From Escherichia coli (GTDB lineage Bacteria > Pseudomonadota > Gammaproteobacteria > Enterobacterales > Enterobacteriaceae), in the NCBI RefSeq assembly GCF_016903815.1, contig NZ_CP069974.1: 64,000 nucleotides of DNA, one strand, 5' to 3'. A program made the position numbers. Positions 27,001 to 30,000 of the stretch are shown here, in pieces; within the stretch, counting starts at the first letter, position 1; every line of letters begins with the position of its first letter.

Positions 27001-30000
27001 CCTTCAGACCCAGGTTAAGATGAAGAAGCACTCTCTGCCTGACTGGGCTACAGTACACCGGGAACTGCGTAATAAATGCGTGACGCTGCAGCTACTCTGG
27101 GAAGAATACTGTGAGCGTAATCCAGGCGGTTTTTACAGCTATAACCATTACTGCCGGATGTACCGTGAATGGCTCAAAACCACTTCACCATCAATGCGTC
27201 AGGTACATAAAGCTGGCGAAAAACTTTTCGTTGATTACTGTGGACCTACCGTTGGCGTTACCGACCCTGAGACCGGAGAAATAAGAACTGCTCAGGTCAT
27301 CGTAGCTGTTCTCGGGGCATCAAGTTACACATGGGCAGAGGCCACCTGGTCTCAGCAGCTTGAAGACTGGGTGATGAGTCATGTTCGCTGCTTCCAGTGG
27401 TTGGGTGGCGTTCCTGAACTTGTTGTTCCGGACAATCTGAAAAGCGCCACATCCAGGGCATGTAAGTATGATCCTGACGTTAACCCTACCTACCAGCAGA
27501 TGCTTGAGCATTATAATGTCGCAGTTTTGCCTGCGCGGCCACGTAAACCGAAAGATAAAGCCAAAGCTGAAGTTGGCGTTCAGGTTGTTGAACGCTGGAT
27601 CATGGCCCGAATCAGGCATGAGATCTTCTACAGCCTTGCATCGCTTAATCAGCGCATTCGGGAGTTGCTGGAAAGACTGAATAACAAAATAATGCAGAAG
27701 TTGGGTTATTCACGTGCAGAACTCTTCATCCAGCTTGATAAACCCGCACTGAAGCCTCTTCCTGAAGCCAGTTACAGTTACACCCTGGTGAAGAAAGTCA
27801 GAGTTCATGCCGATTACCACGTGGAAATCGACAAACATTACTACTCGGTTCCATGTTCGCTGTTAGGCCAGCAACTGGAAGCATGGATCTCCGGAGAACT
27901 GGTAAGACTCTTCAATCAGGGGCAGGAGGTTGCTGTGCACCCGCGCAAGCGTACTTATGGCTACAGTACCCGCAACGAGCACATGCCTGAAGCTCATCGA
28001 CAGCATGCCACCTGGACGCCAGAGCGTCTTCTGGAATGGGCGGGGCACATAGGCAGTGAAACTCATAGTTATGTGCTTCATATACTGAACTCTCGTCCAC
28101 ATCCGGAACAAAGCTATCGCTTCTGCCTTGGACTCCTGAACCTTCATAAAAAATACAGTAAAGCCAGACTTAATGCAGCATGTGCAAGAGCTCTGGAAAC
28201 AAAGGTATGGCGTCTGTCAGGTATTAAATCGATCCTGGAAAAAGGTCTGGATAAACAACCTGTTCAGGATCCAAAACCAGATCTGTTATCCACGATGGAA
28301 CACGAAAACGTACGCGGCAGTGAGTATTACCACTGATACGGGATCCAATGATGAATCATCTTTACGAACAACTGACCGCACTTAAACTCACCGGCTTCCG
28401 TGATGCGCTTAAAAAGCAACTTGCTCAACCGGGCACATACCAGGAGCTGGGCTTCGAAGAACGCCTGTCATTACTGACAGCAGAAGAACTAACCTGCCGT
28501 GAAAACAGGAAGGCAGAGCGTCTGATCAAACATGCACGGTTCAGACTTAATGCTGAGTTATCAAAGCTGGATTATCGTAACAATAGAGGGCTGGACAGGG
28601 CCCTCATCCGTTCACTCAGTCAGGGAAACTGGTTAACCCTGAAACAAAATATTTTACTGACCGGGGCCACCGGCAGCGGTAAAACGTTCCTGGCATGTGC
28701 ACTTGGTCATAATGCCTGCCGACAGGGATACAAGGTCTACTATTATCGCCTTAAAGCGCTGATGGAACAGTGCTATCAGGGGCATGCTGATGGAAGATAC
28801 AGCAAACTTTTGACCAGGCTGAATAATAGCGATCTGCTGCTTCTGGATGACTGGGGGCTGGAACCTCTCTCATCAGAACAGCGTAGCGACCTGCTGGAAA
28901 TAGTGGATCTGATGTACCAACGAGGCTCAATCATCGTAGTGAGCCAGTTGCCGGTGGAAAACTGGTACAAAATGATCGGAGACTCCACACATGCGGATGC
29001 CATCCTAGATCGACTGGTTCATGGCAGTATCAAGATCGAACTTAAAGGAGAATCAATGCGGAAAATACAATCTCCGTTGACCGAAGGAGATCAGTGAAGG
29101 TAATTTAAAAACGGTTCTGTGAAAGTGACACGAACCGATCTCCATCGATGTTACTCACCGATCTCCTTCACGGTAATACGCAGCCAGCCACAAAATTCCT
29201 TAAACGATCAGTAATCTAGCACTAATCTTCTGAACACTCAGAATGTAAGCCCATCATCACATGCATCGTTTTTGCGCTTCACTTTTTATCAGTGCGGTCA
29301 GAACTTCAGCCTGGGTCAGGCCATCTTCATTACACATTTGCATGAGCATGGCCTTATACTTTGGTTCGAGAAATACTTTTACTTCCTTGAACGAAGCTCT
29401 TTTACGGGCCACTGATAATCTTTGTTTCTCTGCATCAGAAAGCGGATTCCCCTTTCTGTATGCTCGTTTTGCGCCAGATGAGGAAGTCACTGTATTTTCT
29501 GTCTGCGACATCTCGCCTCCTCAATACTTAAACAGGGATCGTTTCGCAGAGAATACTACAGTTTTTTGAAATCAGCGACTTGAAAGTTGTGACGATGATC
29601 TGTGTTGGCGCACAAATCATGTCTGATTACGACCGTTTAATGTAATTTTGATAATAAAATGACTGAAAAGTAGGAAATGCTTTAACCAGGGTACCGGCCC
29701 CGGGCGGGACCGGCAGTTTCTAGCATTTCGGGTGTCTGCCCCTGAAATACCTCACACTTCCGGAAAGCGGGGACTTCCGTCCCCGCCCGGCAGCTTACTT
29801 CCGTGCTTCAGGCCAGAGTTACCTGCACCACTGTATTTCCCCTGTGAATATTCAGTTCACATAACTGTTCCCTGAATATCAGTGAAAAACACAACACCGT
29901 GGCGCACACGGCAAGCAACCCGATAAGGGTATATTTCGTCATAAACTTTGACATCTTTGCAAAGAAGAGGCTACAATCAGTAGTGCTAAAGTGCATCATG

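Follow-up and report, generated by a model that had tools for sequence, protein, structure and literature searches.

We analyzed a 64,000-nt stretch of an Escherichia coli contig (NZ_CP069974.1, assembly GCF_016903815.1; hereafter, the window), which is part of an IncF multiresistance plasmid and carries, on its minus strand, a toxin-antitoxin (TA) locus of the hok family resembling srnB/srnC of the F plasmid. A preliminary description had proposed a second hok-family toxin at this site, srnB-like, with a frame ending in NTVVQVTLA and stopping about 5 residues short of its homologs. The open reading frame (ORF) 29808..29999 exists as described and translates to MMHFSTTDCSLFFAKMSKFMTKYTLIGLLAVCATVLCFSLIFREQLCELNIHRGNTVVQVTLA, with the toxin proper formed by the last 44 codons, from the MTKY methionine onward. 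The srnB-like character was borne out by identity to F SrnB at 42 of the 44 residues, by a match to Pfam PF01848 (36.3 bits; cut-off 22), and by the position upstream of copB. The missing residues are the YEARK tail of F SrnB (WP_001312851.1; NC_002483 2926..3075), a 49-residue protein with the C-terminus VTLAYEARK.

The resemblance to F srnB/srnC is not confined to the peptide. In both plasmids, the locus lies upstream of copB of an IncFII/RepFIC replicon, with the same flank down to copB and the leader in frame with the toxin; the antisense -10 box and hairpin are the same, and nucleotide identity is approximately 94% over 412 nt. The architecture is also that of hok/sok (parB) of plasmid R1, in which a leader ORF overlaps the toxin, an antisense RNA is directed against the leader start, and tac, ucb, and fbi elements are found, although peptide identity to R1 Hok, which has the C-terminal A-Y-E motif, is only about 30%. 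Unlike F, the window lacks the toxin promoter, nucleotides 1 to 31 of the mRNA (with tac), and the YEARK residues, and the Shine-Dalgarno (SD) sequence of the toxin reads GATG, not GAGG. The features of the locus are listed in Table 1.

Table 1. Features of the srnB/srnC-like locus and its flanks (positions counted from the first base of the window; UTR, untranslated region; SNP, single-nucleotide polymorphism; PGAP, Prokaryotic Genome Annotation Pipeline)
Feature	Position	Strand	Remarks
copB (repA2) of the IncFII replicon	29257..29511	minus	directly downstream of the srnB locus, as in F
3'-UTR element CAGACACCCG, candidate fbi	29729..29738	minus	perfect 10-nt complement of the deleted 5' CGGGUGUCUG
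Ancestral Glu-Ala-Arg-Lys-stop codons, now out of frame	29795..29809	minus	GAAGCACGGAAGTAA; frame 1 translation ...EARK*
Truncated SrnB-like toxin ORF	29808..29942	minus	44 residues, MTKYTLIG...VVQVTLA-TGA; identical to WP_023144756.1 (annotated in NZ_CP023816 and NZ_CP023854)
Leader (mok-like/srnB') frame fused in frame to the toxin	29808..29999	minus	63 residues, versus 68 in F
2-bp deletion site	29809..29810	minus	AC of the Tyr45 codon UAC (in UACG) gone; TGA stop arises at 29808-29810
Antisense (SrnC/Sok-like) RNA promoter, intact	29948..29977	plus	TTGACA-18-TACAAT; homologous site in F
SNP with two effects	29953		toxin-strand SD GAGG to GATG; antisense -35 TTGACC to consensus TTGACA
Predicted SrnC-like antisense RNA	29984..30047	plus	5' tail complementary to the leader start region, long hairpin, U-rich end; start and end inferred; sequence conserved with F
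Retained part of the toxin mRNA 5' UTR	30000..30060	minus	ucb/anti-SD hairpin and leader SD; corresponds to F mRNA from about nt 32 on
Junction of the 202-bp deletion	30060..30061		GGCTGAATA joined to AGACGCAGG, 1-nt ambiguity; alignment with plasmid ES5, NZ_CP133870
DUF2726-domain gene fragment, 3' part	30061..30302	minus	about 92% identical to the pEC958 gene; abuts the truncated srnB leader; PGAP pseudogene flag in NZ_CP023854

A working hok-type locus produces a stable toxin mRNA from its own promoter, and this mRNA is held closed by pairing between its 5' and 3' ends (tac/fbi). After trimming of the 3' end, tac pairs with the anti-SD box (ucb), and the leader ORF and then the toxin become translatable unless an unstable antisense RNA binds first. 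In the window, homology to srnB ends at 30060. Compared with NZ_CP133870, in which a DUF2726 gene, a spacer, srnB, and copB follow one another, the window is 202 bp shorter, having lost the last 41 nt of the DUF2726 gene, the spacer, the inferred srnB promoter, and nucleotides 1 to 31 of the mRNA, within which tac (GGCGGGUGUCUGAGCC) lies. The 5' sequence starting with GGCGGGTGTCTGAGCC is gone together with the extended -10 box TGgTATTAT. The promoter and the +1 position were placed from homology to hok of R1 and from where the Rfam model starts, the extended -10 box lying just upstream. Consistent with this loss, RF01794, the Rfam model of hok-family mRNA 5' domains with their tac stem, matched F srnB with 95.1 bits from GGGUGUC onward, and the window locus with 24.7 bits, below the gathering score of 59 and with the first 30 or so model positions unmatched.

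The 3' elements that would engage the lost 5' end are retained. A search of the window found the candidate fbi element CAGACACCCG as a single exact copy and its 5' partner nowhere. In a fold of the full-length F mRNA, the 5' end paired not with CAGACACCCG but with a region closer to the 3' end (AGGUUCAGGCA...CCUGCU); both candidate fbi segments are kept in the window, and only their 5' partner has been lost. A simple promoter scan called no toxin promoter in the window but also missed that of F, so the missing call is by itself weak evidence. The functional importance of the lost elements was demonstrated in hok/sok of R1, from which we carry it over to srnB by analogy: mutations of the -10 box stop transcription with loss of toxicity, and every substitution at tac G4, C5, or T6 abolishes toxicity by blocking the open, translatable conformation (PMC9841398).

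The shortened C-terminus is due to the loss of exactly two bases. DNA alignments with F and six other plasmids encoding a 49-residue SrnB showed GCC-TAC-GAA in these plasmids to be GCC-TGA in the window. Since the old EARK-stop codons persist downstream, out of frame, the sequence identifies the end at VTLA as a frameshift lesion and not as a different natural terminus. The PF01848 match of the peptide extends over residues 5 to 43 (profile positions 2 to 40 of 42; F SrnB covers 1 to 42), and its match to NCBIfam NF007279 stops at profile position 44 of 52, versus 52 of 52 for F SrnB. C13, T15, L27, and C28 fall in columns of the Hok alignment that are invariant or nearly so, and the hydrophobic helix and the region of the L-C-E motif are present.

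An alignment with diverse Hok representatives (50%-identity clusters) confirmed that the peptide is short, as every representative runs beyond its end. Fifteen of the 16 keep (A/S)-(Y/C)-E followed by 1 to 5 further residues, and the remaining one lacks the motif yet also extends farther. Both F SrnB and R1 Hok have Y/C-E, and the window peptide stops at the Ala immediately before the Y. Within the SrnB subfamily, family members of the same length were found only in a trivial sense: all proteins ending in VTLA belonged to the same allele lineage or were near-identical derivatives of it, the others ending in VTLAYEARK or having idiosyncratic disruptions. It is conceivable that the last five residues are dispensable and that the allele is a normal length variant encoding a fully functional SrnB, given that RefSeq labels the protein an ordinary "Hok/Gef family protein" without a pseudogene flag and that 44 residues exceed the 40-residue cut-off that has been used to discard degenerate Hok peptides (bioRxiv 10.1101/2025.08.07.668861). 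However, no independent family member ends at this point, the end itself is the product of a frameshift whose former codons can still be recognized downstream, and the same locus has other lesions; we consider a normal length variant very improbable.

The residues removed are of known importance in relatives of SrnB. A survey of 1264 Hok peptides found Tyr at position 48 in 62% and Cys in 34%; where Tyr is encoded, the next codon, GAA, is conserved, which creates a UACG site that TadA recodes to Cys, and evidence cited in the same work indicates that HokB requires its Cys29-Cys46 disulfide for toxicity (bioRxiv 10.1101/2025.08.07.668861). At the homologous position, F SrnB has the UAC-GAA (Tyr-Glu) context. 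The AC removed by the 2-bp deletion belongs to exactly this UACG, so neither Tyr nor an edited Cys is possible in the window allele. In Hok R1 at its native locus, toxicity is abolished by M46I, by Y48N, by extending the C-terminus or tagging it with FLAG, and by 18 of the 20 premature stops that a single step can create (PMC9841398). Only 3 of these 20 stop-accessible codons lie at or after Y48 by our codon count, so the published counts imply that one or more of the truncations removing no more than five residues are loss-of-function mutations in Hok R1. The 44-residue peptide is thus likely to be less toxic than the full-length one.

A SNP affects both arms of the locus at once. Upstream of the toxin start, F and six other intact alleles have GAGGTCAAAGTTTATG and the window has GATGTCAAAGTTTATG; the toxin SD sequence GAGG is kept in 7 of the 7 intact alleles compared. 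On the other strand, the changed position is the last base of the antisense -35 hexamer, and the promoter scan scored the antisense promoter at 11/12 in the window (TTGACA-18-TACAAT) versus 10/12 in F (TTGACC-18-TACAAT). The leader ORF and the leader SD are present. The SrnC-like hairpin is predicted to be stable (-24.1 kcal/mol, z = -3.98), and the 202-bp deletion starts 13 nt beyond the predicted 3' end of the antisense RNA. Judged by these features, the antisense arm of the locus is structurally intact.

The preservation of the antisense arm also fits an antitoxin-only module under selection, whose SrnC-like RNA would neutralize srnB mRNAs of co-resident or competing F-like plasmids or act on another target. 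The SNP that kills the toxin SD raises the antisense promoter to consensus, the hairpin is stable, the 202-bp deletion halts just past the antisense gene, and anti-addiction by chromosomal TA loci is a hypothesis under discussion (bioRxiv 10.1101/2025.08.07.668861). However, the predicted 5' recognition tail differs from the F target at about 5 positions (ATGATGCACTTTAGC versus ATGAAGTACCTTAAC), so that cross-reaction with F-type srnB is doubtful; the tail region is hypervariable among alleles, and deletions of 1 nt and 8 nt within it in sub-lineages speak against constraint. Moreover, neutral decay of any TA locus would be expected to take the toxin first and leave the antitoxin lingering. 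We regard such a module as unlikely. Its more specific form, in which one SNP killed the SD and strengthened the antisense promoter, the promoter deletion followed, and a constitutive SrnC-like RNA was selected as plasmid-borne anti-addiction against competing F-like plasmids, appears to us a long shot; if true, a widespread resistance-plasmid lineage could be helped to displace its relatives.

The leader start deserves a separate remark. At 29975-29999 and the aligned positions of other srnB alleles, the first leader codons, which are the target of the antisense 5' tail, were hypervariable, 1-nt indels included, a variability that may set antisense specificity groups apart. Some plasmids have a 68-residue in-frame fusion of leader and toxin; in others, the leader is a short ORF whose end overlaps the toxin start in an ATGA.

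The allele is widespread. A 451-nt stretch over both major lesions matched 386 PLSDB plasmids at 99% identity or above and about 2450 records at 90 to 95%. An 81-nt probe across the 2-bp deletion matched up to 474 PLSDB records at 99% or above and 2355 at 95 to 99%; among the matches listed, the fully aligned ones in the latter class all span 83 bases, i.e., carry the two extra bases. The junction of the 202-bp deletion was spanned in 362 PLSDB records. The allele is fixed in about 360 to 390 PLSDB plasmids, against about 2350 with intact srnB, and the elements it has lost are conserved in relatives. The complete E. coli genomes held 413 records with the deletion allele versus 1694 with the intact one, and the exact 44-residue protein was indexed in 6963 blocks of an assembly collection. 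A sequencing or assembly error in this homopolymer-free region can be ruled out, as the very same sequence recurs in hundreds of complete plasmids, assembled independently of one another, and in thousands of assemblies.

Both major lesions were present, and tac was absent, in 10 of 10 diverse contigs encoding the exact 44-residue protein; no single-lesion intermediate was found among them. In one record, LR890264, promoter and tac are intact and a 5' SNP like that of the window is present; another insertion cuts its leader, so its 3' end is uninformative. Some sub-lineages have lost 1 nt or 8 nt from the leader ORF, in a part that doubles as the antisense tail region, or 24 nt after the stop codon. 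The deletions in the leader and antisense tail are what relaxed constraint on both arms predicts.

Taken together, the window locus is probably a toxin-dead remnant of srnB/srnC, in which several independent lesions have struck the toxin arm and the antisense arm has stayed structurally intact. Deletion of the promoter and of the first 31 or so nucleotides of the mRNA, including tac, would leave little or no dedicated toxin transcript, and any read-through transcript should keep its leader SD locked by ucb. The toxin's own SD is mutated from GAGG to GATG. The 2-bp deletion ends the peptide before the Tyr/Cys-Glu tail, which Hok relatives need for toxicity and which provides their second disulfide cysteine, directly or via the TadA-edited UACG. 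What is left of the locus includes the antisense promoter, hairpin, and tail. From these lesions, we infer a loss of expression, of toxicity, and of plasmid-stabilizing activity, and the locus is most likely carried passively beside the IncFII replicon. Decay in a safe order, with the toxin going first and the antitoxin lingering, is the best-supported account, and it would be ordinary gene decay involving no new mechanism.

Several points weigh against a dead toxin. The position of the srnB promoter and +1 is homology-based. A weak promoter-like site lies upstream at 30397..30369, and read-through from upstream minus-strand genes is possible. We folded the F 5' domain with and without tac, and the window leader preceded by 0, 100, or 242 nt of read-through sequence. 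The leader SD was paired in every case, intact F included, so that minimum-free-energy folding misses the open state and did not discriminate the effect of losing tac; the claim that a read-through transcript would be locked closed thus rests on R1 genetics, not on folding. Hok peptides tolerate sequence change, 42 of 45 tested homologs being toxic, and Hok R1 E49A is still toxic when overexpressed; the 44-residue peptide, if expressed, could keep some membrane activity. The approximately 390 plasmids are closely related, so their count says nothing on selection. Finally, the main lineage shows no other damage to the leader ORF, the toxin ORF, or the antisense gene, which fits recent decay but also some retained function.

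On these grounds, the locus might instead be an attenuated but working killer, whose 44-residue peptide is toxic, is expressed via read-through or a cryptic promoter, and gives milder plasmid stabilization. The leader ORF, the toxin up to residue 44, the antisense gene, and the 3' UTR are indeed intact in the main lineage, the transmembrane helix and the conserved C13 and C28 are present, overexpressed Hok peptides generally tolerate substitutions, and the weak promoter-like site lies upstream. However, the native promoter and tac have been deleted and the toxin SD is mutated; tac, -10, Y48N, and nearly all stop mutants of Hok R1 are loss-of-function at native expression (PMC9841398); and sub-lineages are accumulating frameshifts in the leader ORF, which is required for coupled translation. 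A working killer of this kind seems improbable to us. The preliminary suggestion that the allele may be attenuated is plausible as regards the peptide, in view of the lost Tyr/Cys-Glu motif and of Hok R1 genetics, but the locus is better described as decayed, its toxin promoter and tac being deleted and its SD mutated.

A toxin-dead remnant would have precedents within the family. The chromosomal hokA, hokC, and hokE loci of E. coli K-12 were reportedly found to be inactivated by Pedersen and Gerdes in 1999, with insertion sequence (IS) elements or rearrangements nearby. Earlier reports found the K-12 chromosomal hok copies mostly inactive (bioRxiv 10.1101/2025.08.07.668861). As in these loci, decay in the window strikes the regulatory 5' region and/or the toxin and largely keeps the reading frame. 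Unlike them, the window copy is located on a conjugative resistance plasmid, a setting in which such loci usually pass for active addiction modules, and it was damaged by a deletion, a SNP, and a frameshift, without an IS element. It should be filed as a degenerate member of srnB/srnC and not as a new variant, as it matches the peptide profile and shares the synteny but lacks the promoter, tac, and the C-terminal motif and scores below the Rfam threshold.

Independent SrnB disruptions at or near the same C-terminal position were also seen in other plasmids, namely frameshifts and fusions, of which one fusion reads like an IS26 end; decay of srnB seems to be a recurrent event in IncF plasmids. 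Upstream of srnB, a block CCCTGAATCTCCAGACAAC.AATATCTGATCGCGCCAGTGGTGGC is common to the window (30280-30345) and F (2690-2750) and cuts the DUF2726 gene at the same point in both; its first part looks like an IS2-type terminal repeat. F appears to have its own, different deletion of about 400 bp, which spared the srnB promoter.

Downstream, the IS21-family element ISEc12 (istA 26795..28336, istB 28348..29097) is inserted between copB and the CopA RNA (26451-26541) and repA (25509..26378). The insertion splits copB from repA, an arrangement also found in NZ_CP023816; in pEC-16-37-NDM-5, copB and tap/repA are adjacent. Additional noncoding elements were detected at Rfam gathering level: an attI/aminoglycoside leader (20352-20433), two same-strand RNA-OUT copies some 1 kb from each other (36651-36720 and 37723-37792), and an AS-pc02 antisense RNA (30731-30916) over a thermonuclease-gene fragment.

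The other hok locus of the window, of the R1 type, encodes an intact 52-residue Hok (60478..60636, minus strand). Its homology to the hok mRNA begins only at about nucleotide 92. Upstream, at the junction between 60718 and 60719 (region 60377-60800), lies the end of an IS150-family element that interrupts the leader and thus separates the promoter, tac, and ucb from mok/hok. RF01794 scored 35.5 bits at this locus, below the gathering score. On the IncHI2 plasmid NZ_CP095662, a different hok homolog has the same IS150-family end (100% identity) at this leader position, give or take a few bases, which points to a preferred site of insertion in the Sok-target hairpin. Beside the hok/IS150 region of the window lie the domains of a group II intron, detected at Rfam gathering level (57866-58015 and 60088-60164; region 57866-60164).

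Hok-locus decay is a kind of event already well known, and the present case is textbook toxin-first TA decay; its value is practical, for the typing of addiction systems. The addiction systems of IncF resistance plasmids are routinely inventoried by polymerase chain reaction (PCR) or annotation, and srnBC was counted as present in many CTX-M plasmids (PMC10220062, PMC6052338). Our literature searches found only such inventories listing srnBC as present and no earlier description of a truncated or frameshifted srnB allele. Annotation and PCR typing probably count the window allele, wrongly, as an addiction system. The allele makes up about 13% of srnB-bearing PLSDB plasmids and about 400 records of complete E. 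coli genomes; if it is toxin-dead, the inventories overstate the active stability modules in a common lineage of clinical multiresistance plasmids. With srnB decayed and the leader of the other hok locus interrupted, the plasmid may rely on other systems; pemIK is annotated beside the same replicon in a closely related plasmid.

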